Shown piece by piece: positions 20,855 through 51,572 of a DNA stretch of 64,000 nucleotides (its first letter is position 1; every line of letters starts with the position of its first letter). Location: assembly GCF_048403405.1 (NCBI RefSeq), contig NZ_CP183131.1; one strand, 5' to 3'. Origin of the DNA: Escherichia coli (GTDB lineage: Bacteria; Pseudomonadota; Gammaproteobacteria; Enterobacterales; Enterobacteriaceae). Both the position numbers and the translations under genes were made by a program. The notes under the pieces were generated by a model. It had not been told where the DNA came from, made no database searches, and was given only the letters and a program-made list of their open reading frames with translations.

Positions 20855-20874
20855 AACTTTCACATGTGAAAGTT
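20855..20874. promoter_or_regulatory. Palindromic operator-like site AACTTTCACATGTGAAAGTT (copy 1 of 8)
   Basis: Perfect 20-bp palindrome directly upstream of the 19909-20841 gene. Confidence 0.5.
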
Positions 20875-21035
20875 CATTCTTTCTTTGTTCTGCCAGTACA
20901 AAGTATTTTGCCTTAGAACGACCTCACACCCCGCCCCTGCTCACGCCCATTTTGGGCAATTACAGATTCAGCATTTACAGGCTTATAATGTGATGCCGTA
21001 ATAGACAAATAAAAAACGGCATAGCCGTTTTTACC

Positions 21036-21299
21036 TTACTTTGCTTTGCTCCGGCCCCCGCATAGTGCATTACCAATGCGTGATGAAAAATCCTTCCATT
21101 CTGGACTGTTCCGGTAGTCATCCTGTCCAGTTGCTTGTTCCTGGCTGGTCGATGCGAATTGATTGAGAGCATCCGGGCACGAAGAGCAGACCCCGATACC
21201 TTCCACTCTATTCACGCGAAGCCAGTGACACGGTTGACCGTTTTCAACACAAGCGTGATCATCGGTGCATCCGCACCCTATACATTTAGCAGTGAGCAT
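21036..21299 (-). CDS. Cys-rich small protein, possible zinc-binding
   Basis: 87 aa with CxGCGC…HxC…C…CSSC. Confidence 0.4.
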   Translation of the reverse strand: MLTAKCIGCGCTDDHACVENGQPCHWLRVNRVEGIGVCSSCPDALNQFASTSQEQATGQDDYRNSPEWKDFSSRIGNALCGGRSKAK

Positions 21300-21326
21300 A
21301 AGCGCCTCCCCAAGTAAATTAACAAC

Positions 21327-21355
21327 ATCATAGTATCATTATGTGATGCTGTAAA
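21327..21355 (-). promoter_or_regulatory. Putative sigma70 promoter TTTACA-N17-TATGAT
   Basis: Same architecture and near-identical spacer as the 19878-19906 promoter; 28 bp upstream of the 21299 start. Confidence 0.45.
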
Positions 21356-21402
21356 TATTAAAAAGAAAGCGGCCATAGCCGCCCTTCCGAAGTAATTTTC
21401 CT

Positions 21403-21900
21403 TTAGTGGTTGTCTTGGCCCTGTTTCCAAGCGACGAATGCCTGCACTAGCGGTACGCCATCATCACTCAAGGCATTCCCTTCTATCCATCCGCCTCGTA
21501 TGACGACAGACTGCCCTGATTCCAAGCCAAAAGGTTCCCACTCAGAAGCCACCGGGGAACCGTCCACCAGCAGGTCGAGATCTTCAATCCATTTATCCCG
21601 GCCATCCAGAGTTTTCCAAACTGAGTCATCGACCCAAAAGGCCTTGATTTGTTCTGGTGTGGCATTGGTCCAATCGTTGTCTTTCCCGTCAGCAAGTGAA
21701 AGTACAGAGTCAACCGTTTGCTGCCAGTTCGGCCAATCTTCTTCGACAACAACGCAAGTAAGCGAGCTCTTGCCATTTGCTCTGCGGCCATCATCAACCT
21801 TCCGGATCAGCCTTTCCAGTGTCGCCAGCTCCTCATCGCAGAGCACGGCCTGTGCATCGCTTATCTTTGCCACGAAGTAACGTGCTTCAAGCATCGACAT
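21403..21900 (-). CDS. Hypothetical protein
   Basis: 165-aa ORF. Confidence 0.45.
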   Translation of the reverse strand: MSMLEARYFVAKISDAQAVLCDEELATLERLIRKVDDGRRANGKSSLTCVVVEEDWPNWQQTVDSVLSLADGKDNDWTNATPEQIKAFWVDDSVWKTLDGRDKWIEDLDLLVDGSPVASEWEPFGLESGQSVVIRGGWIEGNALSDDGVPLVQAFVAWKQGQDNH

Positions 21901-21902
21901 AA

Positions 21903-22391
21903 TTATTTTCCTCCCCAGGGCACAAGTTTTGTCGAATATCCAAGCATTAGTGGGTGCTTCGGGTCCCCCGAACCAGTCACGCCAAATGCCAATACCGGCT
22001 TCCCAGATGCAACGAGCTGCTCTAAAAGCCTGTCCAAATGAACATGCAAAGACTTAGGCAGCTTAGTTCGGCTCCCCCAGCAGGGCACCAAGACATCAGC
22101 ATCCCGAATAATCCTTTCCAAGTGGATTTCATTTTCAGGCCCGACAGGATCAACCGCCGTAGCCAGCTCTCGAACGTCGGTCGCCCGAAAAGCAAAAGCA
22201 TTACCGACTATGAATCGCCTCCCTCCGTTGACCTTGGTAAACCCTATCCACTTTCTGACCGTGTGATCGTCCTCGGTGGCCGTGGCCGTAGAGCCGTTTA
22301 CACCAAAATAACCGAACACAAGGCCTTCGGGTTGCACATCCCTTTCCAGACGGTATCTGTACATGCCGCACTTGCTGATAATTGCACTCAA
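21903..22391 (-). CDS. Hypothetical protein, possibly DUF1643-like
   Basis: 162-aa ORF; weak resemblance recalled from memory. Confidence 0.4.
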   Translation of the reverse strand: MSAIISKCGMYRYRLERDVQPEGLVFGYFGVNGSTATATEDDHTVRKWIGFTKVNGGRRFIVGNAFAFRATDVRELATAVDPVGPENEIHLERIIRDADVLVPCWGSRTKLPKSLHVHLDRLLEQLVASGKPVLAFGVTGSGDPKHPLMLGYSTKLVPWGGK

Positions 22392-22481
22392 AGTGTCACC
22401 TCTTTTTGAATGAAAAATGCCCTTTCACAGTTGCATTTTTTAATGCTGTGATAGGATAAAAGTGTAAGTTGAAAAGGAGAG

Positions 22482-22823
22482 ATGACCATGAAACATGTAC
22501 TGAATATCGCGCTGATGGCTGTTGTTATTCTTGGCCTGGCTATGCTTGAGGCCACCAACTGGGGTTACGCAGTGCTGGCTATCCCGGCAGTGATTTGGGC
22601 CAAGTCGGTGCTCAACCTTCTGCACAAACTGCCGGTTCTGGCTGCTGCTTTTTGGATTCTGGTTGCTGTTTTCGCGTGGCAAGCGGCACTTGTTGGTATC
22701 CTGTTCTATGGCGTACTTGCGACCCCTAAAGCGCCAGCAAACACCAATGGCAAGAAAAGCCGAAAAGCCAATCTGATGGGCACTTACAGCTACGACTTTA
22801 AAACCGGCGAATGCTTTAGCTAA
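22482..22823 (+). CDS. Small membrane protein (paralog of 44971-45333)
   Basis: Three hydrophobic helices; N-terminus MKHVLNIALMAVVILGLAM… versus MKHVVNILLLGMVLLGIAM… in the paralog. Confidence 0.55.
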   Translation: MTMKHVLNIALMAVVILGLAMLEATNWGYAVLAIPAVIWAKSVLNLLHKLPVLAAAFWILVAVFAWQAALVGILFYGVLATPKAPANTNGKKSRKANLMGTYSYDFKTGECFS

Positions 22824-22837
22824 GACTGGCTCCACGG

Positions 22838-23317
22838 TTATTTCTCCTCAGCCTTCCTGATGGGCGCTCTCAGCGCTCTCAGGACAGCTTCTTCAAGAGC
22901 TGCGGCCCCTGCCCTATCACGTCGCTTTGTTAATGCCCCATATTGCTTCCTGATGGGTAGCATCAGCTCTTCGAGTTCATTGCGCTTCCTATCGTCGGCT
23001 TCAAGTTTCTCGCTTCGCGCCAAGGCTTCGGCTTGCTCGCTTTTTGCTTGCCACTCTATCTTGTCGCCTTGCACTTCCCATGCTTTAACGTAATGAGCAT
23101 CATCCAGACCTTTTGCTCCGTTGTCCGAAAACGAGGCCCCTGAGTAAATGCCACCGACAACCCAGCGCCTTTTGCTTTTTCCCTTTGAGAAATACATCTC
23201 ACGGCCTAAAACACCATCGCGCAAAGTGGCTACCGAGATAAATAGCCCAGCGTCCCCTTTCCTAAAGCCGCAGAACACAAACTCAAGCGGTTCGTATAAA
23301 TCACTCATGCTGATCAC
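22838..23317 (-). CDS. Hypothetical protein
   Basis: 159-aa ORF. Confidence 0.4.
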   Translation of the reverse strand: MISMSDLYEPLEFVFCGFRKGDAGLFISVATLRDGVLGREMYFSKGKSKRRWVVGGIYSGASFSDNGAKGLDDAHYVKAWEVQGDKIEWQAKSEQAEALARSEKLEADDRKRNELEELMLPIRKQYGALTKRRDRAGAAALEEAVLRALRAPIRKAEEK

Positions 23318-23711
23318 TCCGAAGAACAGACAAGACCTTCTCAGCTCGCTCCTGGAGGTCTATGAGTTCGGCAGCATCATTACCGCTCAATGACATGTCC
23401 CCGCCATAGAGGCGATACTCAACGCTGTCCATCGCCTGGCGAAGCAATCCTAGAAGAGCATTCACGTTTGCCGGTGTTGATAGGGCGACGGCTTCACCTT
23501 TCAGCTCACGTCCATTAAATTCCGACCACTCGGCTATGCCTGTCAGTTCGCAACAATTTGAGCAGGACATACTGGCAACATTCTGGGGATCGTCTGGACA
23601 GTGTTCATTGATGACAAAGTTCATCTCGTCACTGCCGCACTTTCCACAAATGATGTGTACTTTTTTGCCCATGCTGCTGCCCTTAGTGGAGAGTCTGCTC
23701 TTCCACAACAA
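23301..23711 (-). CDS. Hypothetical Cys-rich protein
   Basis: 136-aa ORF with CGKCGS…CSNCC. Confidence 0.4.
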   Translation of the reverse strand: MLWKSRLSTKGSSMGKKVHIICGKCGSDEMNFVINEHCPDDPQNVASMSCSNCCELTGIAEWSEFNGRELKGEAVALSTPANVNALLGLLRQAMDSVEYRLYGGDMSLSGNDAAELIDLQERAEKVLSVLRSDQHE

Positions 23712-23877
23712 TCATCCCGTCAACCAAGCTGATTGTGGCGGGACCGCAGTTACCCAGCACCTCAGCTTTGACTCCGTTGTTCAACGCGACATAAAGCCGT
23801 CTCGCCCCGTTGGTGACGCGGATGCCTTTCTGGTCGAGTTGTTCAAGCATTTCTTCGTAGGTAATTTTTTCGTCCAT
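23683..23877 (-). CDS. Hypothetical small protein
   Basis: 64-aa ORF. Confidence 0.3.
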   Translation of the reverse strand: MDEKITYEEMLEQLDQKGIRVTNGARRLYVALNNGVKAEVLGNCGPATISLVDGMIVVEEQTLH

Positions 23878-24128
23878 CAGTTCTCCTCAGCAAGGATCTC
23901 GTCGATGAGGTTCTTTGCTATCAATCTGGCATCCAAAGGGACAGCCAGGCTGTCAATTCTGCCTCTTTCATGGGCAACAATGAGTTGCGCCTTCCAAGCT
24001 ATCCCGGAAAGAGAAGCATCAGGTTCTTTACCTGAGCTTCTCATACATCTTGCGTTTCGGTACGCCGCCAGCCACTCAGGTCTGGTTGAGTTATAACGCC
24101 CAAGGCCAGCTTTTCGTTGGAAGCACAT
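23877..24128 (-). CDS. Hypothetical small protein
   Basis: 83-aa ORF; palindromic site and promoter-like motif upstream. Confidence 0.3.
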   Translation of the reverse strand: MCFQRKAGLGRYNSTRPEWLAAYRNARCMRSSGKEPDASLSGIAWKAQLIVAHERGRIDSLAVPLDARLIAKNLIDEILAEEN

Positions 24129-24140
24129 TCATCGCGCACC

Positions 24141-24169
24141 TTTACAGATTCATTTTATGATACTGTAAA
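24141..24169 (-). promoter_or_regulatory. Promoter-like palindromic element TTTACAG-N15-CTGTAAA
   Basis: Shares the catcattttatgat spacer with the other recurrent promoters. Confidence 0.35.
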
Positions 24170-24191
24170 CAATAAAAAGACACCTTGCAAG

Positions 24192-24210
24192 ACTTTCACA
24201 TGTGAAAGTT
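24192..24210. promoter_or_regulatory. Palindromic operator-like site ACTTTCACATGTGAAAGTT (copy 2 of 8)
   Basis: Between 24218-24766 and 23877-24128. Confidence 0.5.
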
Positions 24211-24217
24211 TTCTGGT

Positions 24218-24766
24218 TTACATCTGCTCGCTTGGATCAAACCCCAAAGCCTTGCACACGTCATCCAGGTCATCGAGCGTGAAGAATCCCAGCGTCAGTT
24301 CCCCGGAGCGCTTCGCGGGGTTATAGCGAACTTTGATAGGCCTACCCGTAGCATCGCTCATCAGGGTCTCCAGGCGCTTAATGTCTGCATCCCTGTCCAC
24401 TTCTTTGCCCTTCGCTATCGCCTCAAATTTATGAACCGGTGTCCTGGTATGCAGGAGATCCCTCAGGAGCTTTTCTCTCTTGCTGAAAGGTAACTTAGCC
24501 ACGGCCCTCACATGCCCCAGGGTGATCTTGCGTGGATTTCTGAGCCAGAGTGTTAGCTCTTCCTCCGATAGCGTACCGGCGCGTTTCAGGTGTGTAACCG
24601 TATAGACCTTCTCAATACCCAGATCCTCTCTGATCTGACTGTTTGAACGCCCCTCTCCGCTTAGGAACGCGACCACATAGGCCTTTTCTGCATCAGTCAT
24701 GCCTGGATGCTGGTGGTAGTAGTCAATGGCTTCTCTTGCATCGAGCAGTAGGGGTAGGTTGTTCAT
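24218..24766 (-). CDS. Putative HTH DNA-binding protein, weakly ParB/KorB-like
   Basis: 182 aa; segment …ITLGHVRAVAKLP… resembles the ParB GHARAL region; low certainty. Confidence 0.4.
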   Translation of the reverse strand: MNNLPLLLDAREAIDYYHQHPGMTDAEKAYVVAFLSGEGRSNSQIREDLGIEKVYTVTHLKRAGTLSEEELTLWLRNPRKITLGHVRAVAKLPFSKREKLLRDLLHTRTPVHKFEAIAKGKEVDRDADIKRLETLMSDATGRPIKVRYNPAKRSGELTLGFFTLDDLDDVCKALGFDPSEQM

Positions 24767-24928
24767 TCAGGACACCTTTTAGTCACATGACTATATCGAG
24801 GCTTATTCTACCCCCTATTTTAGTCACATGACTACTTACTGACATTTCGGCCCCCATCGCCGCCGATTTTTCTTGATTATAGGTTTGAATCTATATAGGA
24901 TTGCACCTATATTAAGTAAGGAGAAATC

Positions 24929-25279
24929 ATGTGGGTCATCGAGACAACCGACACCTTTGATGAGTGGTTCGATGCTCTGGATGATACCGATAGAGCAAAC
25001 GTGCTGGCTTCGATGATGGTGCTGCGAGATAGAGGCCCCATGCTGTCGAGGCCATACGCGGATACTGTTAACGGTTCATCCTACAGCAACATGAAAGAGC
25101 TTCGGGTCCAAAGCAAAGGAGATCCTATCAGAGCGTTCTTTGCGTTCGATCCAAAGCGTAAGGGGATTCTTCTCTGCGCCGGTAACAAGACCGGGGACGA
25201 GAAAAGGTTTTATGAAGTAATGATCCCAATTGCAGACCGTGAGTTTGCGGCGCACTTGGATAAATTGAAGAAGGAGTGA
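24929..25279 (+). CDS. higB: Type II toxin, RelE/HigB-like
   Basis: 116 aa; followed 4 bp later by an XRE-HTH antitoxin gene (toxin-first order typical of HigBA). Confidence 0.65.
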   Translation: MWVIETTDTFDEWFDALDDTDRANVLASMMVLRDRGPMLSRPYADTVNGSSYSNMKELRVQSKGDPIRAFFAFDPKRKGILLCAGNKTGDEKRFYEVMIPIADREFAAHLDKLKKE

Positions 25280-25283
25280 CGTT

Positions 25284-25586
25284 ATGGCAAGAACTCTTGA
25301 CCAAATGCTGGCAACAGAAAAGCCTGAGGTTGTTGCCAAAGCACAGAAAGCGGCCACTGAGATGTTACTGAACATCCACTTGGCAGAGCTTCGTGATCGC
25401 ATGAACCTTACCCAGGGGGAAATTGCTGCATCTCTGGGTGTGAGACAGCCGACAGTCTCCGAGATGGAAAAACCTGGACGAGATCTCAAGCTGTCGTCCA
25501 TTAAGCGGTACGTTGAGGCCTCCGGTGGCAAGCTACGCCTCGATGTTGAACTTCCGGACGGCACCCACTACGGCTTTGCCGTTTAA
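25284..25586 (+). CDS. higA: Type II antitoxin, XRE-family HTH (HigA-like)
   Basis: 100 aa; HTH LTQGEIAASLGVRQPTVSEMEK. Confidence 0.65.
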   Translation: MARTLDQMLATEKPEVVAKAQKAATEMLLNIHLAELRDRMNLTQGEIAASLGVRQPTVSEMEKPGRDLKLSSIKRYVEASGGKLRLDVELPDGTHYGFAV

Positions 25587-25612
25587 CTCGATACGCCCCG
25601 TTATGGGGCGTA

Positions 25613-25906
25613 TTACTTCTCTTGCTCTTCTTCCAGCCGTTTTCGGTATATCTCTCCTGCACGTTCCCTGCCATCGTCGGTCAGCCTAAAGGCCAGCTTT
25701 AGAGAAGCATTCCGGTACTTGTTCAACAGGCCGTTCTCCACCAGCGTGTGGCATGACGTTCGGAAGTTCGTTCCATGAATACCGCTCTGGCGAGCTGAAT
25801 TGATCATCTCCAGTATTTTTACACCTGGTACAGGCTCGGCTTTTCCACCGGCCTCAATTGCGTATAGAATGAACAAAACGTCTTTTTGAGTTGACGACAA
25901 TCTCAT
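25613..25906 (-). CDS. Hypothetical protein
   Basis: 97-aa ORF. Confidence 0.35.
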   Translation of the reverse strand: MRLSSTQKDVLFILYAIEAGGKAEPVPGVKILEMINSARQSGIHGTNFRTSCHTLVENGLLNKYRNASLKLAFRLTDDGRERAGEIYRKRLEEEQEK

Positions 25907-25993
25907 CCCTTCCCCTTATTCATGTCTGATATGAATAAGGCTCCCACGAAGGAGCCTTATGTAAACCTTATTCATGTGTCACATGATTAAGAT

Positions 25994-26266
25994 CTAGTTC
26001 ACGGAGTCTTTCAACCCCTTACCAGCTTTGAACCCAGGAATGTTGGCCGCCGCGATCTGGATGTTCTCTCCAGTCTGGGGATTCCGCCCGGTTCGCGCTG
26101 CGCGTTCCTTAACGTGGAAAGTACCAAACCCAGTGAGCGCTACTGTCCCACCCGCTTTAAGCTCCTCTGTCACTGAGTTGATCAGCGCATTTACCGCAGC
26201 TTCGGCCTTTGCTTTGCTAATGTCAGCGTCTTCGGCCACTTTCATAATCAGTTCACTTTTGTTCAT
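25994..26266 (-). CDS. HU-family nucleoid-associated DNA-binding protein
   Basis: 90 aa, [67 protein letters not shown]…. Confidence 0.85.
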
Positions 26267-26323
26267 CGTTATTCCTGTTTGTTTTCTTGGTTACTGTTTA
26301 CACCTGCATACTCTGGGGTGTGG

Positions 26324-29117: not shown

Positions 29118-29476
29118 TACCCCCTCCCGTTATTCTGATACCTGCCCAGCTCAGCCCTGAGCCTATTAATTTCTTCCGTGGCTTCGGCCAACTGCTCCCG
29201 ATACTTCTTGAACTGCTGATATGAATGCCAGGACTGTCCTTTCGATACTGACTTCGTGATGGCGGCGACCTCATCCGGCGTCAACCGGGTGAGCTGCTCT
29301 TCCGGATAGATCAGGATGGTGTTGCTGTCCCAGTCAAAGCCTGCGTGAATAGCTTTCACCCCCACTGTAGGGGTTCCACCAATCCCACCTGGCTGGTGGA
29401 TGACAAGCCTCAAAGGCGCTGAGGCCTTGTGTGGATGAAGGCTATCGAGAGCCTCTTTTGCTTCTTGTAACTCCAT
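29117..29476 (-). CDS. Hypothetical protein
   Basis: 119-aa ORF; palindromic site 40 bp upstream. Confidence 0.4.
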
Positions 29477-29515
29477 AGATTCACCTCATAGTGAAATCAG
29501 GCCCCGGAGAGCCTG

Positions 29516-29534
29516 ACTTTCACATGTGAAAGTT
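29516..29534. promoter_or_regulatory. Palindromic operator-like site (copy 3 of 8)
   Basis: actttcacatgtgaaagtt. Confidence 0.5.
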
Positions 29535-29961
29535 AATTTGCCTTCTGCTGTCTGGCAGAAACCCTCAAGGCCAGCGCCTTTTGCATGTCGGGCTGCTGGA
29601 AACGCACCTTGGTCCGATCAGGCCAACTGTCCATTTCATTGCACCGCAGGGTGTCTATGGCCGCATCACGGTAAACCTGATAGAAGTCGGTTCCACCTAT
29701 GGAGTTAATTGCCATCATGGCGGCAAACATCGGGTTACTGTTCATGACGCTTGTAAGAGTCTCGGGGGTCATTGGGGTGTCGCATGACTTGTTGAGGGCA
29801 ACCAGCAGGTCATTACCAACCAGGGCACAGGCAGCGCATACCTGTTTGGTATCATCCAAGGCCTTCGCGTATTCGTTGTTTGGCTGAGGGACGCTTGAGC
29901 AAGCCGACAGGACAAGCAGCCCCGCCAGAAGGCATCCCAATTTAGTTGTAATCTTGATCAT
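29533..29961 (-). CDS. Putative lipoprotein
   Basis: Lipobox LLVLSAC at the end of the signal peptide. Confidence 0.55.
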   Translation of the reverse strand: MIKITTKLGCLLAGLLVLSACSSVPQPNNEYAKALDDTKQVCAACALVGNDLLVALNKSCDTPMTPETLTSVMNSNPMFAAMMAINSIGGTDFYQVYRDAAIDTLRCNEMDSWPDRTKVRFQQPDMQKALALRVSARQQKAN

Positions 29962-29974
29962 CAGTTCTCACTCC

Positions 29975-29994
29975 ACTTTCACATGTGAAAGTTT
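29975..29994. promoter_or_regulatory. Palindromic operator-like site (copy 4 of 8)
   Basis: actttcacatgtgaaagttt, 14 bp upstream of the lipoprotein start. Confidence 0.5.
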
Positions 29995-30855
29995 TTATTG
30001 GTTCGCGGAGTCGTCTTGTTGCGACTCAATCATCATTTTTCGCATCACGGCCATGATGGCTTGCGCCGGTTGAGCGCCGCCGAGAAGCTGGCTCTTGCCG
30101 GTATGGTTGTCCACTACAAAAGTGGCTGGTGTCCCGTTGACGCCATAGCTCTTGGCTTTCTGGATGTCAGCTTCAACCTTGTCTTCGTACTTTCCTGAGC
30201 CGAGGCACTCCCGGAACGCATCCAGATCAGCACCAACACCAGTGACAACAGAGGCCAGGTCAGCAACACCGCCACCATTCCCCTGGGTATGGTGGAAAAT
30301 GTCGTTAACGAAGACCCAGAAGCCACGGTTGCCCTTCTGCTCAGCAATACATTCAGCGGCCAGAGCTTCCTTGTGAGCTGCCGGGTTATGGAAATCGAGA
30401 GGCATGTGCTTCCACTGCCAATTCACATTGCCTTTGCTGGCATCCACAATTTGTTTGGGTGTGTCGTGGAATCGCTTGCAGAATGGGCACTCCATATCGG
30501 AGAACTCCACCAGCGTGAACCGAGCACCAAGGTCCCCGTAGATGTGTTTGCCTTCTTCGACCTTCTCAGGTGCTGCCTCGAACTGGGCATACTTCTGATC
30601 GATGTCGGCTTGTTGTTTCTGCGCGACAAACTTGTTGATGCTTTCGGCCACAGCAGCTTCAAACTCTGCCTTGCTTTTGAAGGTGACGCCTTCGGCATCC
30701 TTCACCTGGTTGACCGTAGACTTCACGTTGGCGATCTCTTGCGCCAGATCCTTCTCTTTCACGAACTGGTAGATCCCGAACCCGGTTCCTACGAGCCCCA
30801 AAAGAATGGCGGCAACAACCCCGAGACGTAGGGATTTGGTACTTTGTTCTGTCAT
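29995..30855 (-). CDS. Thioredoxin-fold thiol:disulfide oxidoreductase (DsbA/DsbC-like)
   Basis: N-terminal TM anchor then CPFC active-site motif. Confidence 0.75.
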   Translation of the reverse strand: MTEQSTKSLRLGVVAAILLGLVGTGFGIYQFVKEKDLAQEIANVKSTVNQVKDAEGVTFKSKAEFEAAVAESINKFVAQKQQADIDQKYAQFEAAPEKVEEGKHIYGDLGARFTLVEFSDMECPFCKRFHDTPKQIVDASKGNVNWQWKHMPLDFHNPAAHKEALAAECIAEQKGNRGFWVFVNDIFHHTQGNGGGVADLASVVTGVGADLDAFRECLGSGKYEDKVEADIQKAKSYGVNGTPATFVVDNHTGKSQLLGGAQPAQAIMAVMRKMMIESQQDDSANQ

Positions 30856-33466: not shown

Positions 33467-33557
33467 TATTCACCTCCTATACCAACCAGCGTACAGGACT
33501 TTTCAAAAATGCAACCCCGCCTAGCTGCCCAATTCGGGCAACCCTGATTCAATCCAG

Positions 33558-33574
33558 AACTTTCACATGTGAAA
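33558..33574. promoter_or_regulatory. Palindromic operator-like site (copy 5 of 8, one arm degenerate)
   Basis: aactttcacatgtgaaa then ctttcc. Confidence 0.45.
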
Positions 33575-34084
33575 CTTTCCGCCACAGGAACAGGAGGTTT
33601 TTACCTGACCAGAACGGATGGATTGATAGCGGTGCCACAGCTTGACCACTTCTTTTTCGCTGAGAAGGTTTGTCTTGATGTAACGGACTCTATCCCCGTC
33701 CGCTGTCTCAACAACGGTTCGGACATAGCCGTACTTGGCAACGGGTGCCTTGTACTTGTGTGACAGAATTACCCGGTAAACCGAGAGCTGGATAATGTCC
33801 GACTCATAGATGTGGTTTACCTGGCGCAGCTTGGTGTCCAAGGGAATGAGAACCCCATTCTTGGTTTGGTACACCTGATCAACCCTGCCGTGCATGGGCA
33901 CCGGCTGTGTGGTTGATATGTCCTGTTCGGACAAAAACAGAGTGGCCGAGCGCAGCTCATAAGGCATGTTCTCTGATTTCCACCACGCCCAGGTGTCTCC
34001 AATGCCGCGTTTGCGCCATTGGTCCACTTTCGCAATGACGAAAGGGGCGATGATCAGGACGAATATCCAGAGAACTGGCTTCAT
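33563..34084 (-). CDS. Hypothetical protein with N-terminal TM anchor
   Basis: 173-aa ORF. Confidence 0.4.
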   Translation of the reverse strand: MKPVLWIFVLIIAPFVIAKVDQWRKRGIGDTWAWWKSENMPYELRSATLFLSEQDISTTQPVPMHGRVDQVYQTKNGVLIPLDTKLRQVNHIYESDIIQLSVYRVILSHKYKAPVAKYGYVRTVVETADGDRVRYIKTNLLSEKEVVKLWHRYQSIRSGQVKTSCSCGGKFHM

Positions 34085-34086
34085 GA

Positions 34087-34608
34087 CTACCTCCGGCCCC
34101 TAAACCACTCTGGATGATTGGATACATCCATGCTCTTAACCTGTGATGAGAAGACCAGTAGCTCTTGGGTCGTCAGGACGGTCTCAGGAGCCCGAGCGAT
34201 GAAAGGTCTCAGCAATTCAGAACCCGCATAGATATTGATGACCATATGCAATCGCTCTGTTGCTCCAGAAACTCTCCGCCAGCTCCGGTAGGTTTCTGTT
34301 GATTTGGCATAGCCAACCAAGGCAGGAGCCAGCGTGTCGGACTCCTTCGTATTCAACTTCCCTTTTGCTGCCTTCGATACGAACTCAGCGATCACCGAAG
34401 CCAGCATGTCGGAGGTAAGGTGAAGCGGCAGCTTTATCGTGTCGAAGTCAGCCTGCTTGATGGTGAACAGGCGGATGTGATCGTTGCGGTAGTCACGCAC
34501 ATAGATGACATGACTCTCAAATGGGTTGGAGTGGTTAAAGGCATCCATACCCCAGCCTGCGGCCTCAAGATGTGCGTTTGATACTGACTTGTCGTAATCA
34601 AATTCCAC
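34087..34608 (-). CDS. Hypothetical protein
   Basis: 173-aa ORF. Confidence 0.4.
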   Translation of the reverse strand: MEFDYDKSVSNAHLEAAGWGMDAFNHSNPFESHVIYVRDYRNDHIRLFTIKQADFDTIKLPLHLTSDMLASVIAEFVSKAAKGKLNTKESDTLAPALVGYAKSTETYRSWRRVSGATERLHMVINIYAGSELLRPFIARAPETVLTTQELLVFSSQVKSMDVSNHPEWFRGRR

Positions 34609-34612: not shown

Positions 34613-35221
34613 TTACTCTCCGTCTTGTCGTTCAGGAACTTTCACATGTGAAAGTTTTCCGTCGGTCATGATGTCCAGGACGGCTTTGCCCAGTCTCATC
34701 CCTTTATGGTTTTGAACCGGGTCTCCCTTGTAGAAAAGTCCTGGCTCGTTATCGGGATGGAATACCCCGTGAGGAATGTTGTCGTGATCGCCCAGCCACA
34801 TGCGTAGCCTCAGATCCACCAGCCACCCATCATCCAGGACAACCCAGAAATGCGGTGTCACGATGTCCTTGGTCTGTTCGTTTCGCACAAAGCCATACAT
34901 GCAGTCATGAGGTACACCCGCTTCATTGAGTAGGTGGCTTACTGCCCATGTCATACCGTCACATTCCATCTGGCAGTCATCCAAGGTCATAAGGACGGCT
35001 TCCAGTTCCCGGTGCCACTCCGTCATTTGCTTGGCCGCAGGTTTTACCACCAGCTCGTTTTTGTTTTCTGCCAAGATGATGTCTTCCTCGTCAATATTGC
35101 ATTCGTCTATCGCTTCCGAACGGATGGATACCGCTTCATCCCAGTCATCGCTCGATCCGAAAATGCTCCAACCCTCAAGACCGTAATTCACCCATACGAT
35201 GAACCGCTTTATCGTTTTCAT
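34613..35221 (-). CDS. Hypothetical protein
   Basis: 202-aa ORF. Confidence 0.4.
   Translation of the reverse strand: MKTIKRFIVWVNYGLEGWSIFGSSDDWDEAVSIRSEAIDECNIDEEDIILAENKNELVVKPAAKQMTEWHRELEAVLMTLDDCQMECDGMTWAVSHLLNEAGVPHDCMYGFVRNEQTKDIVTPHFWVVLDDGWLVDLRLRMWLGDHDNIPHGVFHPDNEPGLFYKGDPVQNHKGMRLGKAVLDIMTDGKLSHVKVPERQDGE
34637..34656. promoter_or_regulatory. Palindromic operator-like site (copy 6 of 8)
   Basis: aactttcacatgtgaaagtt, 29 bp upstream of the 34608 start. Confidence 0.5.
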
Positions 35222-35416
35222 GTGCGGCCCCCTTTAACCGTGCAACGTTCCCACATACTCACCCCTTCAAACCGTAACCCCACCAAAAAGCCACTTCTTG
35301 ATGATTTCCAATCAGCAGCGGCAGGTTGCCCCTGAACTAACCTCACCGAAAAACCACCTTTAGATTGCTTTCTGGTGCTTATCAAGTTCTCCTGAGTGAT
35401 TAGTCGTTCTGAAAAC

Positions 35417-35444
35417 TTTACTTTTCACAGTATCATTTTATAAT
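35417..35444 (+). promoter_or_regulatory. Putative sigma70 promoter TTTACT-N16-TATAAT upstream of the PAPS-reductase-like gene
   Basis: Contains the recurrent tatcattttataatactgtaaat motif. Confidence 0.4.
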
Positions 35445-35489
35445 ACTGTAAATCATAAAAACAACCCAGTAAAGAAAAAAGAGCGACTT

Positions 35490-37057: not shown

Positions 37058-37214
37058 AAAAACAGTGTTGATTATTTTTTGTTCAGTGATCAAAAGGATA
37101 AATATAAAGATCTTTAGATCTTTGTATAAAGGATTAAAAACGGTTAAAGACAGGTTAGGCGTTCTAAATCACCACTCAACACATTGATATTACTGGTGTT
37201 TTCATATTTATTCC

Positions 37215-37952
37215 GTGCAACAAACCCATAGGTTGCCGTGCAGCGTTCCCATAGGTTGCCGTGCAACGTCCCCACATACCCTTGGATCTTATCCACTGTT
37301 ATCCACACGGAACCCCTCTTTTTTCCACAAAATCCTTACAAAACAGAGCTTTCGTGCAGCGTTCCCACATATCAGATCTGGTGTTCGTGCAGTATTCCCA
37401 CATGTCTAAGGTCATACGTGCAGTCGCCCCATATACAATTTTCTGAACGTGCAACGTACCCACATGTCAATTTTGGTCGTTTTTTGCACCGTGCAGCGTA
37501 CCCACATATGATCGTGCAGCGTTCCCATATACCAAAACCCCGTTTATGCACAGGAAATGTGGATAACTTTTGGCCTCTTTTTGTGTGCGCGTGATCACTT
37601 TATGGACTATTAGAGTCATTTTGACTGCTTTTTTAGGTTTGTCCTGATCTGTCAATCTTTGTTCTGCTTCGTCAATCGTGCAGAGTTCCCATATATCGAG
37701 AGGTTCAGGACCTGCTTTCGTGCAACGTACCCACATATCAAATCTCATAACGTGCAGGTCCCCCACATCCTCACCCTTTAACTATCAATACCTTACGGGA
37801 ACCACTCTACGGGAACCACTGGAGCAGCATGGCACTTATCCTTCGTCGTGGCTTACGCTTGCACGATACTGAGACTCAGCTTGCGACTACCGTGCAGCGA
37901 TCCCATATATAGAGCCCCAGCCCACGCTGCATCTGGGGTCACGTTCGCTCTA
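37215..37952. repeat. Replication-origin iterons: about 14 direct copies of a ~19-bp repeat CGTGCA(G/A)CGTNCCCA(C/T)AT(A/G)
   Basis: Copies start at about 37215, 37237, 37259, 37352, 37385, 37417, 37447, 37490, 37512, 37667, 37699, 37729, 37870, 37934; one more at 40332. Confidence 0.75.
37289..37307 (+). promoter_or_regulatory. Tandem DnaA boxes (TTATCCACT, TTATCCACA) within the iteron region
   Basis: Perfect DnaA-box consensus at 37299-37307; AT-rich stretch with GATC sites at 37060-37200 nearby. Confidence 0.5.
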
Positions 37953-38093: not shown

Positions 38094-39194
38094 CTATCTC
38101 CCCTTACGTTGGGGTTCATCAATGATGTCGTGGTCGATCATGCCGTGCTTGATGGCCCGTAGCTCTGTCTGCTGCTTACGCTTGTTGGACGCCATCACCT
38201 GCTTCACGAAGTTCTCATGAGGCCTTATGACGTACCGCACGTCGATGACTCTGCGGCCATCCTTGATCTGGTTCGCGTCGTAGTCGCTTATGACCTCTTG
38301 TTTGATGAGGGCCTCCAGAGCGAGCTTCATGGCTCTGACGTTCTCCGGCATCCGTGGGCTCAATTCACGAGGGCTCTGGGTCAGGAAGCTGATAAGCGAT
38401 GGCGTGTACGGCGAATCTGGTGATGCTTGAGTCCAGTAGTGGCTCATTCGCTTGTAGATGTACCGTGCAAGAGGGGAGCGGATTTGCATTCCGATTTTGT
38501 AGTTGTACTGACGAAACGACAGATTCATGATCGATTCGTTTACCAGCGGGTTGAACTGCACATAGCACCTGGCGTTCCCGCCTTTCTTGCGAAACTCACC
38601 TCTGGTGGTCAGTCCCACCATCGGGAAGAAGCTGGAGCTGATGAAGGCTTCACCGTCATCACTGATACATTCGAGTGTTGCGCCACGACAAACCTGGATT
38701 GCTTCCTTGATTTCGTTCAGGTTGTACCCGTGACCCATCTTCGAGAGCTCTTTCTGGAGTTCGTACAGAGTGAACATGACTCCAGCCTTGCCCTCGATGA
38801 TATGGCCTTTCCCGTTCACTGCGAGCTTGCGTAGAGCATCCTCAAGGATTTCCTCTCGCTGTCCCGCGTAGATCAGCACGGTTCTTCCGTCATCCTTCTC
38901 GATGATGGCTGGCTTCACCTTCACCGTGAAATGCTGGCCTCTGATGGTGCATTGTCGTGTCACTACAGCGTTGGATAAATCTTCATGCTCACGCTTTTGG
39001 TCCCAAATGTACTTCGGCAGCGCATCGTAGATCTCGATGGTGTTGGAGTAGTCGTCTTTCTTGGCCGGAGATTCAATGATCTCAAACAGGCTCATTTGCG
39101 GTGAGTCTTTGATTACGTCGAGTTTCTCCAGGTCTTTGTCTTTGGTTCTCTTGCTCATGATTGTTCCGTCGATACTTTCTAGCTGGTGGTCCAT
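38094..39194 (-). CDS. repA: Iteron-type plasmid replication initiator RepA
   Basis: 366-aa ORF immediately upstream of the iteron array; true start may be the internal Met at 39158. Confidence 0.7.
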   Translation of the reverse strand: MDHQLESIDGTIMSKRTKDKDLEKLDVIKDSPQMSLFEIIESPAKKDDYSNTIEIYDALPKYIWDQKREHEDLSNAVVTRQCTIRGQHFTVKVKPAIIEKDDGRTVLIYAGQREEILEDALRKLAVNGKGHIIEGKAGVMFTLYELQKELSKMGHGYNLNEIKEAIQVCRGATLECISDDGEAFISSSFFPMVGLTTRGEFRKKGGNARCYVQFNPLVNESIMNLSFRQYNYKIGMQIRSPLARYIYKRMSHYWTQASPDSPYTPSLISFLTQSPRELSPRMPENVRAMKLALEALIKQEVISDYDANQIKDGRRVIDVRYVIRPHENFVKQVMASNKRKQQTELRAIKHGMIDHDIIDEPQRKGR

Positions 39195-40260: not shown

Positions 40261-40508
40261 ACCACCGTCTCTCGATGCTGGAGGGCAAGCGGTTCTCGAT
40301 GCGAGGGTAAGGTCTGTTTATCTGAGCCTATCCGTGCAGCGTTCCCATAGGTTCCCTTACTCAACGATCAAAAAGCCACCGAAAAGCAACCTATATGCCC
40401 CTTTTGGGCAATTACACAGGCCATCTGTCCCCGCTTTTAGCCTTATTCTCTATCCAACACGCGGCAAGCAATCGAAAAGCAATCTAAAAGCAATCTTTGG
40501 AGGATTTC

Positions 40509-43439: not shown

Positions 43440-43449
43440 TCCGCCCCCC

Positions 43450-44255: not shown

Positions 44256-44826
44256 TGTTTGCCACCCTTTAAACTGCGTTGTTAGCCATACAAAAAGTGC
44301 GTTATTCGATGAACGCTTTTAGAGTTCTTCTATTGTCACAAACTGACACATTTTGCGCCTTTACAAGCCCAAATAATGATGCTGTCAACAATAAAAAACC
44401 TTTAAAAACATACACTTAACTTTGTACCGACGGAACAAAGTTACAATACTTTTAGTAATCAATGGGATACGGATATTTTTGCGATAGTAATGGAAAGTGC
44501 GCCAAAAGAATGGCGGAAATAGCGCACGGGGAGTGCGGTATTTTGTGATATTAAATAGCGTTTAGGTATAAGTGATTTTAGGGATACAGCGAGGGCTGAA
44601 ATTGCGAATACAGCAGGAGCTGAGGAGGGCAGGGAAGGCAAAGGCGCATCCCGACCACACAAGGATGATGGTGTTTACAGAAAGAGATATTTGAGAAAGA
44701 GAACTCTGCGGTGTTGCAGATGGGGACCAAAGCGTTAGCAATGGCCTATTCCATAGTGTATGCGATTTGTTTGACATGTTCAACTATGTAATGCTTTGTC
44801 AATAAACGCCTTGTTCCGTAAGGGCA

Positions 44827-44846
44827 AACTTTCACATGTGAAAGTT
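44827..44846. promoter_or_regulatory. Palindromic operator-like site (copy 7 of 8)
   Basis: aactttcacatgtgaaagtt in the 715-bp gap between the Ner-like gene and 44971. Confidence 0.5.
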
Positions 44847-44970
44847 TGAGGGCAAATTCTAATCGAAGAAGTTGCCAATGGAATGGTTGTTTAGCAAAAA
44901 ATAGTCAAACTTTCACAGTTGCATTTTTTGATGCCGTGGTAAACTGGAGGTAAAGAGTAAGGGGGTTGAT

Positions 44971-48300: not shown

Positions 48301-48985
48301 TACATGTGTAGTCAGCGCCGTCAGGGTTTGCTGTAGACAAATACAACCTAGTTCCGTAGAGCTGTGAGTTGAATCGCAAAGCTGAGTCAGTTGAACGGTT
48401 CATCAACTCATCAAGGGACATTAGGTTGAGATCGACTTTGGTTAACGTGCATTCCCGAATGTAATTGTTCCAGGAACGCCTCACGTCAACATAGCCGCCT
48501 CCATTTGCTGAGTTAAGCGCAGTAAAAACTCCTGTGTCATAGGCTCGCCGTCTGACGTCATTCAACAGTTTCAGTGTTTCGGAAAAGTGGCTTTCCGTGA
48601 CATTGGGTACGATTACCCCATATCCAGTTTCAAACAAATTGGTGATGGTGTATCCCACGTTGGATATGACACCTCCAGCAAAGCCTACCCCAATAGGGAC
48701 ATTGGCGACGACTCGAACCTGCCCTGTATAAGCGTCCTCGATAGTCACAGTTGTGGTTGGGCCGAAGAAACAGGCATATAGAATCCAACCTACCAGCACT
48801 TGCTGGAGGTTGATTTGCTTTGCGCCCTGAAAGACGGACTGAATACAGATCATCAAGACCCCAAGAAGCAGGCCAATACTGACCATCTTCTCGAAATCCC
48901 CGGTGCCGGTGATCATTGATACTGCAATCAGGATTTGCTCCAGAAAAGCAGAGTCACCGATAGAGTGGATTGAAAAAGATCCCAT
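45371..48985 (-). CDS. traG: F-type T4SS mating-pair stabilisation protein TraG
   Basis: 1204 aa; N-terminal polytopic membrane domain and long Gln/Ala/Ser-rich periplasmic region. Confidence 0.85.
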   Translation of the reverse strand: MGSFSIHSIGDSAFLEQILIAVSMITGTGDFEKMVSIGLLLGVLMICIQSVFQGAKQINLQQVLVGWILYACFFGPTTTVTIEDAYTGQVRVVANVPIGVGFAGGVISNVGYTITNLFETGYGVIVPNVTESHFSETLKLLNDVRRRAYDTGVFTALNSANGGGYVDVRRSWNNYIRECTLTKVDLNLMSLDELMNRSTDSALRFNSQLYGTRLYLSTANPDGADYTCTDGWVAISTATANLSSPVVVDALNSLLGIDTSTGDNALTKLTDSLQAMGATTTSSIDYLKAAVLEPLYYEAAAGRYQDLQDYGSALMVNQAIQQRNTQWAAEQSMFMTVVRPMLTFFEGFIYAITPIIAFIIVMGSFGLQLAGKYVQTILWIQLWMPVLSIINLFVHTAASNEMSSLSAGGLNSMYALSSTGDVLQHWIATGGMLAAATPVISLFIVTGSTYAFTSLASRISGSDHVDEKMQTPDLLKQGPVMQSQPAYNHNQFSGAIANGAESMISTFSLGSTLASGVSSAQALQSQKSEAFQSTLGRGFSDGVSQDQAYSRLSNVGRNVSSQNTAQSQLINQQAKNFMDKFQVDDSHSDAVKGAFAMQAMGTLDVDEAASMLMPMVGKARAAMKAAAGVKSNSTALVPAGGNGESGGGSDVLDIKAQAKGATESSTQDSSSWSASDVSQFMKGVSYSQTDSQALTNQLAQGFSRSGSESFKQTWGDSLSQNLSKSASELVSASDTFTTMSQLQNQMGSMTNTDFKTLGGAVAQTPAAMNQLNDYFRNAAPQSVKDEAASLQQRYQAYGMSPQVAQAAARMTAMTNSKNYEQGKELGGYQAALQAINTASGRNGAFSGDAYGNNGIEGPNVQGLPGQVQGAVGSGPNIPTGFRENVAGMAGTNPASEAGQLPTNSPLVQNEHAAGTSALHNQAQQTERNVSAPELKKAQDNLMNSLPEMSWSASAWGAWDNSSDWMGRRAEQAGGALIAGGQAGADAFSRAMDQMRTMTPEQRDQFIAATQRGDQAVQEEFGWAGDAMVGMAKLGRNVMGAAASGYDAAKEWLTGKSDLSEAAKGMSIEERGAFYAAALSSAAEAGGGAAQQFMNQYGDEFKETMQSIAQSRYGLTESQAAVYAESFDTNEGRMNQAVQNLKMEYAERNPDGSPMMQGGQPVLSQQNEEFTDKLVNVLQNSTEAGDRSGSYLTAVRGYNIANQRF

Positions 48986-48997
48986 TCCAATAGCTCC

Positions 48998-50431
48998 TTA
49001 GTTCGTGCTAGGAGGATTGGACAAAGTTGCCAGCATGTATTTTTGCTTGCGGATGTTGTCCAGTAGGTTGTTGTATTTCTCAATTTGGCTTGCCAGATCG
49101 CCGTATTGAGAGGACAGGATTGTGTATTCAGCACGGATTTGCTGTTGCGATTGCGCGAGAAGCTCTAGTGCCTCTTTCTTGTAGGGTGATTTGCTGTTAG
49201 CCATCGCAATGCGAGCTGCGCGGAAGAACTCTTCCGAGAAGCTATACATCATGGTCAGGGCTATCGCTCCTGATGACTCTGTTGCGAACAGGTTAGCGCC
49301 GTCCTGTGAAAGGACAGACAAGTTACGAACAATGGTGCCAATCCCTCCGGGGAGGTTAGAAACAAAGGCCTTTTCTGGGTCGGTTAAGGTTCCAGAGTTC
49401 GTTGCGTATTTGTAGATCACACCAGGTGTAGAGCTTGTTCCTAACAGCATATCGGTGATCTGGTTCTTGATACCTTTGAGCACGACAGTTTTATTGCTGG
49501 AGCCAGCACTCAGGCAGTTGGTCGTATCAGAATCACAGGAATAGATCTCAACAGAACCGCCTGAAATCAGGTCTGACAAGGTGATCTTGTTACCTGGTAG
49601 GGTCGTCAGAGGGGTTGTTTTCGCACCAGTGCCGGTTGAGTTCGGGTCGTTTACCAGATCACCAATGATGACTGTGCCGGTTAAAGACATGATCGCTTCA
49701 AGAAGGGTGTTATCCCCGTACTGGAACCAGGTGTTGGCGTTGTTGCTCTTGAGTTGCTTCCAGACGATGTTGCCAATCATCTTGTTGTATTCGTCAGGTT
49801 TGTTGGCTTTCAGTTCTTCCAGAGGACTCTTGCCGCTGGTTTCCTGCTTGGACCCGAAGAAGTCTTCATACAGGCCGGAAGTTGTCGCGGTTATAGAAGC
49901 ATCAGTTTTGTGTTTAAGGTCCATGCCGCTGGTTAGGTCGTTCACGAAACCTTGAGCGAGCTGGCAGGAGTTGCCCAGATGTTGGTTGAGCGCTTGCACT
50001 TTCTTCTGGAAGTTCTCTATCCACTTCGCTCCGTCCGGGAAAACGTTATCGAGCGCAAGCTGGAAGGCATAGCCCTTGGCGTTGGCTGCTACAGCCCGAA
50101 GGAGTTGGACAATTTGATCCGCGTTAATGAAGGAAAGCGAACCGCCGAACAGATCTACACCACCGCAACCAGCTTTCCATGATGGAGGGGCAAAGCTCAC
50201 CAGGTTCTCGTCGAAGATTCGTGTCTTTGCAGTGAACCGGCCACCAGCTAAAACGCCACGTCGTTGGCTTTCATAAACCCCAGGTGGTGTTGTGTTGCTC
50301 ATTTCATTGAAGAGTTTGTCCATCTGTGATTGGAGGCCGTTAGCGGCTATCGCCCCTGTCGGTGCCATGACGAGACTGGCCGCCACACTCAGGGCAAGCA
50401 GGCTCCTTTTTAATGTCTTGTGCGTGACCAT
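48998..50431 (-). CDS. traH: F-type T4SS pilus assembly protein TraH
   Basis: 477 aa with signal peptide; gene order traF-traH-traG. Confidence 0.85.
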   Translation of the reverse strand: MVTHKTLKRSLLALSVAASLVMAPTGAIAANGLQSQMDKLFNEMSNTTPPGVYESQRRGVLAGGRFTAKTRIFDENLVSFAPPSWKAGCGGVDLFGGSLSFINADQIVQLLRAVAANAKGYAFQLALDNVFPDGAKWIENFQKKVQALNQHLGNSCQLAQGFVNDLTSGMDLKHKTDASITATTSGLYEDFFGSKQETSGKSPLEELKANKPDEYNKMIGNIVWKQLKSNNANTWFQYGDNTLLEAIMSLTGTVIIGDLVNDPNSTGTGAKTTPLTTLPGNKITLSDLISGGSVEIYSCDSDTTNCLSAGSSNKTVVLKGIKNQITDMLLGTSSTPGVIYKYATNSGTLTDPEKAFVSNLPGGIGTIVRNLSVLSQDGANLFATESSGAIALTMMYSFSEEFFRAARIAMANSKSPYKKEALELLAQSQQQIRAEYTILSSQYGDLASQIEKYNNLLDNIRKQKYMLATLSNPPSTN

Positions 50432-50432
50432 C

Positions 50433-51473
50433 TTAGTTCTCCTGTAATTTGTCCCGGATGTACTTCATGAGTTGTTCCGGTGGCACAAAGTTGTCTTTAT
50501 CACCGCTCGCTTGAGATAGCTGTTTGAGGTCAGAGCCCAGCTCTGGTGAGGCCAAGCGTTCGGCTATGTTGTTTTCCAGGTTGAGTACCGGACGTGTACG
50601 GTTAAACTCTTCGTCTGTGACCCAACCATTGCGTTTTGCTGCGACCAAAATCCTGTGATTCAGCTCAGGAAGAGACATTGGCCCTTGTCCTATAGGAGCG
50701 AACTGACCGTCTGGAGATGCGAGGTAAACAGCAGGGAAAGTTACGATACCAAGTTGTTTGGCATGGCCTTCATCGGTTTTGTAATGGGGGAAAAGCCCAC
50801 TGGGGAGTGGTTTGCCGTCCATAGATACAGGAATGATCGAGAATCCTTCTCCTTGTTCCAACATCTTGATGAGCGGTGCTTGCAAGTCACTGTAGTCATC
50901 GTCGGACTTGTAGAAGAAGAATATCCCTACGCGTTCGGCTACGCTTTTGAGTAGCATGTTTTTGGCGTTACCAGCGTCACGATCAACTTGTTGTGAGGCA
51001 AACGTGGCAGCAGGACGTCGAGTAATTTCATCCAAGAAAGGATCACCTACGACCGCCAGCTCTGTAGCATCGGAAAATTGTTCAGAGCGATCTATCGCAA
51101 ATCGTTGCAAGTAGAGAAACGTCCTGACGTTTTCAACGGTAGGATTGTTCCAAGCAAGGTCTTTGTACTTGGGTAAGTTTTCCCGGAACCATTCCGCTGA
51201 GAACATTTCTGGGCCGCTCGGAAGCGGAGCAGCAGGCTTAGGCTGTGTAGGCTTCGCTTCTGCCACAGGCTTTGGTTTGGGCTTTTCGGGTTTTTTCTCT
51301 GGTTCTTTGGGCTCTTCCTTGTACCAGAACCAACCCTCTTCCTTTCGCTCATAAAAACCAGGTCTTGTGCCATCTTGAGCCCAAGCCTGGTGTGATGCCC
51401 CCAGCGTGAGCGCTGCAAGGAGCAGTAAATTCAAAGGTGATTTTTTCATAGTCTCACGCACGTATTTTCCCAT
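50433..51473 (-). CDS. traF: F-type T4SS TraF (thioredoxin-like pilus assembly protein)
   Basis: 346 aa, signal peptide, Pro/Lys-rich linker; N-terminal …GFYERKEEGWFWYKE… motif. Confidence 0.8.
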   Translation of the reverse strand: MGKYVRETMKKSPLNLLLLAALTLGASHQAWAQDGTRPGFYERKEEGWFWYKEEPKEPEKKPEKPKPKPVAEAKPTQPKPAAPLPSGPEMFSAEWFRENLPKYKDLAWNNPTVENVRTFLYLQRFAIDRSEQFSDATELAVVGDPFLDEITRRPAATFASQQVDRDAGNAKNMLLKSVAERVGIFFFYKSDDDYSDLQAPLIKMLEQGEGFSIIPVSMDGKPLPSGLFPHYKTDEGHAKQLGIVTFPAVYLASPDGQFAPIGQGPMSLPELNHRILVAAKRNGWVTDEEFNRTRPVLNLENNIAERLASPELGSDLKQLSQASGDKDNFVPPEQLMKYIRDKLQEN

Positions 51474-51554
51474 GCTCGATATGGTAGAGGTGGGAGGCGT
51501 GAAATTAGGCAGGTGTAAGCGCCCATTTAGGGCGCTTAGAGCGTTTTATTTGTC

Positions 51555-51572
51555 AACTTTCACATGTGAAAG
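51555..51572. promoter_or_regulatory. Palindromic operator-like site (copy 8 of 8)
   Basis: aactttcacatgtgaaag between the helicase stop and the traF start. Confidence 0.5.

Follow-up and report, generated by a model that had tools for sequence, protein, structure and literature searches.

Eight Dispersed Palindromes in an IncC Plasmid Backbone Very Probably Correspond to Published parS Sites

A 64,000-nucleotide stretch of Escherichia coli DNA (contig NZ_CP183131.1; this whole stretch is called the window below) contains eight dispersed copies of a palindrome, whose identity and function are considered here. The window represents the backbone of a plasmid of incompatibility group C (IncC, or A/C2). 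Over 700 plasmids typed IncC/MOBH, from hosts such as Klebsiella, Salmonella and Escherichia, match its backbone part at 99% identity or more, and this part is collinear with the Klebsiella pneumoniae plasmid NZ_CP129693.1, which is likewise typed IncC/MOBH. The region that holds the palindromes starts with backbone genes mostly of unknown function and continues with a HigB/Xre-like toxin-antitoxin pair, HU, dsbA and sppA, the oriV iterons and repA, then mobI, stbA, acr2, acaDC and acr1, and finally eexC and traGHF. As set out below, the eight palindromes are very probably eight of the 14 parS (centromere-like) sites of an IncC conjugative multidrug-resistance plasmid.

A search with the 18-mer ACTTTCACATGTGAAAGT, allowing up to three mismatches, yielded exactly eight matches within the window, against a mean of 0.02 copies, and never eight, in 100 dinucleotide shuffles. 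Six copies are perfect (20856, 24192, 29516, 29975, 34638 and 44828), and two have a single mismatch at the outermost base pair (33559 and 51556). The eight near-perfect palindromes reported in an earlier note on this DNA are thus real, and the coordinates given there agree with these within 1 bp, the difference depending on inclusion of the flanking A. None of the eight copies has a mismatch in the 14-bp core TTTCACATGTGAAA, and no further core was found in the window at up to two mismatches. The half-sites TTTCAC and GTGAAA are spaced by a 2-bp AT in every case, and half-sites that abut as in canonical parS were not found within the window; the earlier description, canonical parS half-sites with a 2-bp central insertion, is therefore literally correct. 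Similarity between the copies ends at about 22 bp, with flanks of the form nnAC and GTnn, and the sequences outside are unrelated, so that the palindrome is not part of a longer repeat element, a possibility that the earlier note had also raised. The AC flank is present in eight of eight copies and the GT flank in six, the deviants being the copies at 33557 (CT, with C for G) and 51554 (GA for GT).

A 22-bp inverted repeat, AAAC-TTTCACATGTGAAA-GTTT, has been published as the IncC parS (Muranyi, Szabo, Acsai and Kiss, Nucleic Acids Res, 2024; PMC10954446; hereafter Muranyi et al., 2024), and this paper was the single match in a full-text search for the core TTTCACATGTGAAA. On plasmid R55, parS lies in the parA promoter and at 13 further places, amounting to 14 copies, and the neighbours named are the gene of a ParB-like regulator, a DNA helicase gene upstream of traF, and eexC (Muranyi et al., 2024). 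The published definition allows for 7–14 copies on an IncA or IncC backbone, with one in the parA promoter. A scan of the whole of the near-identical plasmid NZ_CP129693.1, of the kind that the earlier note had called for, likewise found 14 perfect cores, in addition to one degenerate copy in a xerC-like gene (record position 52425), which is the half-variant TTTCGCATGTGAAA. The IncC/IncA parS and the palindrome of the window are the same element, with an identical 22-bp repeat and 14-bp core, the same neighbours and 14 copies; the window is without the parAB-053 operon and the other six copies, and there is no difference in kind. The earlier “parS-like” call is borne out, and the identity of the palindromes is already published, to which no new biology is added here.

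Binding and centromere function have been demonstrated in the published system. Purified ParB, encoded by the second gene of the parA-parB-053 operon, specifically shifts three parS probes in electrophoretic mobility shift assays (EMSA) with competition controls (Muranyi et al., 2024). One of the probes, “parS R55_174 (eexC),” is the perfect consensus AAACTTTCACATGTGAAAGTTT (Muranyi et al., 2024), and the window copy at 44826–44847 is identical to it; at the other seven copies in the window, binding of ParB is predicted from sequence. A 4-bp insertion at the centre of parS abolishes binding, the 14-bp core is not bound by itself, and the GT flank positions are considered important (Muranyi et al., 2024). 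The copies at 33557 and 51554 both deviate at these positions, and their occupancy by ParB is therefore putative. A parS mini-replicon is stabilized only when both ParA and ParB are present, and the centromere function of parS was demonstrated directly through stabilization and incompatibility (Muranyi et al., 2024). In addition, the par proteins repress the parA promoter (PparA), in which parS overlaps the -10 box, an effect that the authors credit to ParB. Whole IncC plasmids repress PparA 8–11-fold and parAB-053 alone does so less strongly, which implies an additional backbone regulator of PparA encoded outside the par operon (Muranyi et al., 2024). Salmonella genomic island 1 (SGI1) carries two sites that mimic parS (DR1/DR2), which it uses to stabilize itself and to displace the plasmid (Muranyi et al., 2024).

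The parA-parB-053 operon lies outside the window, and thus beyond what the earlier note could take into account, about 13.7 kb past its left end as judged from the matching plasmid NZ_CP129693.1, on which parB and parA occupy record positions 132135–134105. The copy at record position 134155 immediately follows a TTGCAG-N17-TACAAT promoter upstream of parA and overlaps its predicted -10 box. ParB (393 aa) comprises ParB_N, HTH_ParB and KorB domains (Pfam PF08535, E 4e-38) and scores above the NCBIfam cutoff for parB_part; among solved structures, its best match is KorB of RK2 (8qa8, E 9e-21), in a comparison that spans the N-terminal and DNA-binding region of the IncC protein. Its ParB_N domain contains a GERRWRA motif, which we take to be the CTP-binding motif of ParB proteins, and binding of cytidine triphosphate (CTP) and sliding by IncC ParB are predicted from this motif. 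ParA is a 261-aa ParA-family ATPase, and 053, the third gene of the operon, encodes a winged-helix HTH_43 protein. Identification of 053 as a KorA homolog was considered and found to be unsupported, as the protein matches HTH_43 and has no KorA match in Pfam or the PDB. ParB dimers would load at each dispersed parS as CTP-dependent clamps and then spread, and the resulting partition complex would act with the small Walker-type ParA to segregate plasmid copies. ParB that is bound at parS, or slides from it, might also modulate neighbouring promoters in the manner of KorB, including those of traF, vcrx012 and eexC.

Six of the eight copies in the window are strictly intergenic, and seven precede a minus-strand start codon, with distances from the 22-mer of 12, 61, 37, 11, 90, 27 and 80 nt (the last being traF). 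The earlier statement that each lies in an intergenic region upstream of a minus-strand gene is mostly right; the exceptions are the copies at 33557 and 34636, which take in the ends of open reading frames (ORFs), and that at 44826, which lies upstream of the plus-strand gene eexC. The copy at 20854–20875 reads GAAC-TTTCACATGTGAAA-GTTT on the minus strand, and the ATG at 20841 follows 12 nt downstream; with an AcaCD-type box (core TGCCCAAAATGGGCG, 20944–20958, minus strand) 68 nt upstream, the copy is probably part of the 5′ untranslated region (5′ UTR). This box and the copy near record position 130740 of NZ_CP129693.1 are the two candidate counterparts for the pVCR94 gene names vcrx035/036. 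The copy at 24190–24211 starts 6 nt past the stop codon that ends the ParB-like regulator gene, and a promoter-like repeat with dyad symmetry (24136–24178) lies 20 nt downstream of it. The copy at 29514–29535 takes in the TAA stop codon of ORF 29533–29961, with the ATG at 29476 following 37 nt downstream, and that at 29973–29994 directly follows the stop codon of the dsbA-like gene (29995–29997), 11 nt upstream of the ATG at 29961. The copy at 33557–33578, with one outer mismatch, contains the TGA stop codon of ORF 33563–34084 and adjoins the AcaCD box of the vcrx012-type promoter (core TTGCCCGAATTGGGCAG, 33525–33541, minus strand), which follows 15 nt downstream. The copy at 34636–34657 is located inside the 3′ end of ORF 34613–35221, 27 nt upstream of the GTG at 34608. 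The perfect 22-bp copy at 44826–44847 lies in the acr1-eexC intergenic region, 123 nt upstream of eexC. Finally, the copy at 51554–51575, also with an outer mismatch, starts 8 nt past the stop codon of the UvrD-helicase gene, 18 nt upstream of the adjoining AcaCD box of the traF promoter (core GCGCCCTAAATGGGCGC, 51519–51535, minus strand) and 80 nt from the traF ATG at 51473.

This crowding at gene ends, where five of the eight copies either overlap the upstream gene's stop codon or begin 0–8 nt after it, would suit hairpins or terminators that act at the RNA level, or a small mobile repeat of the repetitive extragenic palindromic (REP) or miniature inverted-repeat transposable element (MITE) type, and each copy can indeed form a hairpin of 7–10 bp. 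However, these hairpins are weak (-5.7 to -9.5 kcal/mol) and AU-rich, only two of the eight stand out from shuffled controls, and none was called terminator-like in a terminator scan. The primary sequence, and not just the pairing, is invariant among the copies and across plasmids whose ParB proteins are only 51–65% identical, and no structure-preserving (compensatory) substitutions were seen among the copies in the sequence data. A mobile repeat is excluded by the end of similarity at 22 bp, with neither a flanking repeat nor a target duplication seen. An RNA-level or mobile-repeat origin is accordingly regarded as extremely improbable.

The neighbourhoods of two copies, one 6 nt downstream of the ParB-like gene and one in the acr1-eexC intergenic region, might instead suggest operators of another regulator encoded in the window, namely the ParB-like protein, Acr1 (Ner-like), Acr2 (H-NS-like) or AcaCD (FlhDC-like), and the additional PparA regulator that Muranyi et al. 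(2024) place outside the par operon could be counted in favour of such a view. Binders from this set had been proposed in the earlier note, and none of them is upheld, since the published EMSAs show specific binding by purified ParB of parAB-053. The ParB-like protein (182 aa, 24218–24766) has a ParB_C dimerization match (1e-7) and a marginal HTH_ParB match; it has neither a ParB_N domain nor an NCBIfam family, shows no significant similarity to true ParB (E 1.3), and is found in 994 plasmid records versus 1344 for ParB. These features, together with its absence from a relative that has 14 sites, rule it out as the binder. In that relative, the Vibrio penaeicida plasmid described below, the 14 sites are kept and no homologs of the ParB-like regulator, H-NS (Acr2), HU or Xre were detected, which also speaks against the H-NS-like protein that had been proposed. 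AcaCD recognizes a different motif, boxes of the TGCCCAAAWWGGGCA type, which have been mapped to other coordinates by chromatin immunoprecipitation with exonuclease digestion (ChIP-exo); in the window, AcaCD boxes adjoin three parS copies and overlap none, so that AcaCD is ruled out as well. As the palindrome also co-varies with ParB divergence in Halomonas, assignment of the sites to another regulator of the window is very unlikely, although slightly less so than the RNA-level reading.

The site was also examined in relatives of the plasmid. The pAQU-like plasmid pTUMSAT-OK2 of V. penaeicida encodes a ParB that is 56% identical and carries 14 perfect cores, among them copies at the parA promoter, between eexC and acr1, and upstream of the traL region. 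The plasmid pTHAF12_a of Halomonas sp. THAF12 has the same parA-parB-HTH operon, with a 42% identical ParB, and carries the variant TTTCGCATGCGAAA upstream of parA and a second copy elsewhere (19000–19013 and 6767–6780). Both half-sites of TTTCGCATGCGAAA carry the change symmetrically, which is what co-evolution with a dimeric binder would produce. The site thus tracks ParB divergence rather than that of other regulators, the core being unchanged at 56% ParB identity and replaced by a symmetric variant at 42%. More widely, at least 120 stretches from the genomes of other species contain the exact 18-mer, versus about 4–9 expected by chance (our estimate). Most of these stretches are multi-copy and come from Vibrio, Shewanella, Marinobacter, Idiomarina and Photorhabdus, mostly marine Gammaproteobacteria, and three adjoin ParB homologs of 51–84% identity; some lie in loci that have an FlhC-like gene and could be SGI1-like islands. 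In an alignment of the region upstream of eexC from IncC, IncA and one Edwardsiella plasmid, the 14-bp core is kept and aligned in place; V. penaeicida has a copy in the same intergenic region that the aligner did not bring into register. In plasmid 1 of Edwardsiella anguillarum, the parS upstream of eexC has the flanks G...C (GTTTCACATGTGAAAC), so that each half-site equals the canonical chromosomal half-site GTTTCAC, with the central AT still present. The exact 18-mer is also found in six contigs of metagenome-assembled genomes of Heimdallarchaeota, always in the same conserved sequence; these matches are considered coincidental and without relation to plasmids, because in our reading their flanks look tRNA-like (GGGATTTGAACCCGGG... 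T-arm) with a hairpin or intron.

The eight copies in the window, out of the 14 of the plasmid, lie within ±17 kb of the oriV iterons (binomial P ~0.008, calculated post hoc), and in the Vibrio plasmid about half of the sites are located, in our reading, near the mobI/stbA region, which is the site of the replication region in IncC. This placement around oriV resembles the origin-proximal clustering of parS on chromosomes. The iteron array itself (37213–37917) consists of about ten 21-nt repeats of the CCGTGCAGCGTTCCCACATAT type beside repA (38094–39194); lone iteron-like copies are found at 35238, near the divergent promoter between 35221 and 35490, and at 40332, near the stbA promoter. The two ends of the window are formed by resistance islands. 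The left island (1–14000) carries ISCR1, qnrA1, sul1, qacEdelta1, aadA2, dfrA12, intI1 and IS26, and the right island (about 54500–64000) carries IS26, aac(6')-Ib-cr, blaOXA-1, catB3 and fosA3. No parS copy was found in either island of the window, which is consistent with parS being a backbone feature.

Compared with the canonical chromosomal parS TGTTNCACGTGAAACA of Spo0J/ParB, a 16-bp palindrome with abutting half-sites, the IncC site shares the half-site TTTCAC/GTGAAA, perfect dyad symmetry, the presence of several copies around the origin, and a cognate ParB_N with a GERRxR motif. It differs in the extra central AT and in the outer flank, AC/GT instead of TG/CA, and it is carried by a plasmid rather than a chromosome and paired with a KorB-type instead of a Spo0J-type DNA-binding domain. 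The central AT may serve to keep the plasmid system separate from the chromosomal ParB/parS of Vibrio and Shewanella hosts. Another counterpart is KorB and its operator OB on the IncP-1 plasmids RK2/RP4, where KorB acts on 12 copies of TTTAGCSGCTAAA both as a ParB and as a global repressor that works with KorA. In addition to the KorB domain and the structural match of IncC ParB, the two systems share about a dozen palindromes dispersed over the backbone, some at promoters, some distant and some within genes, one of which autoregulates the par operon, and a small ParA partner; moreover, a second palindromic promoter motif beside several IncC sites is reminiscent of the OA/OB pairs. The comparison with KorB operators made in the earlier note was therefore apt, and the same analogy is drawn by Muranyi et al. 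(2024). On the other hand, OB measures 13 bp and the IncC site 18–22 bp, with a different sequence; no KorA homolog was found for IncC, 053 being of the HTH_43 type; and global repression has been demonstrated for KorB, whereas for IncC the published repression is that of PparA.

This analogy leads to the question of whether the sites form mainly a transcriptional operator network, through which ParB represses or co-regulates backbone operons while partition is secondary, as for KorB/OB on RK2. A plasmid-wide regulatory role of the parS sites is a hypothesis; the effects shown or inferred from experiments are the autorepression of the parA promoter and an effect on an SGI1 promoter. By our count, eight of the 14 copies of the plasmid lie within about 100 bp of a recognizable promoter element, namely the parA -10 box, the AcaCD boxes of vcrx012, traF and the vcrx068-type and vcrx036-type promoters, the repeat at 24136, the eexC promoter, and the 5′ UTR at 20854. 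This pattern is reminiscent of the classes of KorB operators. Four AcaCD-regulated promoters, including those of traF and vcrx012, have been noted to carry parS beside the AcaCD box, and knock-out of the parS beside the AcaCD box of PS004 in SGI1 alters the copy number of the island (Muranyi et al., 2024). The pairing of parS with promoters recurs in the relative whose ParB is 56% identical, the KorB domain of ParB and the 8–11-fold repression of PparA point in the same direction, and KorB of RK2 is a sliding clamp that silences promoters at a distance, up to 1.5 kb away, by sliding and capture by KorA. Against these points, six of the 14 copies have no nearby promoter signal, three of them being inside ORFs (34636, xerC and 91753) and the others at junctions between genes of an operon; the Vibrio relative has no traF copy; the published expression data are confined to PparA; and centromere function, by stabilization and incompatibility, has been shown directly. 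A mainly regulatory network is therefore plausible but rated somewhat below an even chance, and it would add a role to the parS identity of the sites rather than replace it. Muranyi et al. (2024) describe the global regulatory role of ParB as under investigation, and no literature on the IncC ParB regulon after that study was found.

The largest repeat family of the backbone is not parS but a 43-nt dyad-symmetric repeat, approximately TTTACAG-yATCATAAAATGATAC-TGTRAA. It is found in promoter-bearing intergenic regions at 19873–19915, 20969–21011, 21322–21364, 22419–22461, 24136–24178 and 35419–35461, and at 44355–44397 (acr1 promoter) and 44910–44941 (eexC promoter), as well as in the PparA spacer and twice around the parS near record position 130740 of NZ_CP129693.1. 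All copies lie in promoter-bearing intergenic regions, several of them within 20–100 bp of parS, and the region's best sigma-70 matches (TTTACA-17-TATGAT) are two members of this family. With a position weight matrix from nine copies, about 12 sites were detected on the plasmid versus 0.5 in shuffles, a comparison that is partly circular; the matrix recovered Pacr1 and gave independent strong matches at record positions 91284 and 168784. The arrangement of parS followed by a promoter of the dyad type recurs in pTUMSAT-OK2, and no description of the motif was found in a full-text search of the literature with variants of the core string. The dyad repeat is a candidate operator for the additional PparA regulator inferred by Muranyi et al. 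(2024). Acr1, which represses Pacr1 and is conserved in the Vibrio plasmid pTUMSAT-OK2, and 053 are the candidate binders; a small ORF downstream of the promoter at 24136 was considered as an Acr1 paralog and dismissed, as it has no similarity to Acr1.

Two further arrangements were observed in this part of the backbone. A 561-bp gap without an annotated gene contains a strong promoter-like TTTACA-17-TATGAT at 21355–21327 on the minus strand, followed about 300 nt further on by a terminator-like hairpin that is bidirectional (21012–21032); they bracket an unannotated 87-aa ORF (21036–21299, minus strand) that has no family match, and the element at 21012–21355 could be a small gene or a small RNA. 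In addition, two imperfect 26-bp palindromes of the CCTTATTCATGTCTGATATGAATAAG type, 52 bp apart (25914–25939 and 25966–25991), are located between the HU gene (25994–26266) and a 97-aa gene annotated as “ParM” (25613–25906), and look like a paired operator.

It is tempting to speculate that ParB combines its partition function with that of a KorB-like global regulator, cooperating at parS with AcaCD (traF and vcrx012) and with a second repressor that acts on the dyad family (PparA, ORF 23877–24128 with a RefSeq start at 24044, the vcrx036-type promoter, eexC and acr1), and thereby coupling segregation, entry exclusion and the control of conjugation. This second repressor would be the “additional regulator” that Sci of SGI1 is proposed to target. 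The scheme is tentative and, taken as a whole, rather unlikely.

The significance of the sites lies in their published identity as parS. IncC plasmids are major carriers of carbapenemase and extended-spectrum β-lactamase (ESBL) genes, and parS and ParB keep these low-copy plasmids in the lineage, while SGI1 mimics parS for its own stability and for the eviction of its helper plasmid. The positions of the sites therefore matter for strategies of plasmid curing and incompatibility.

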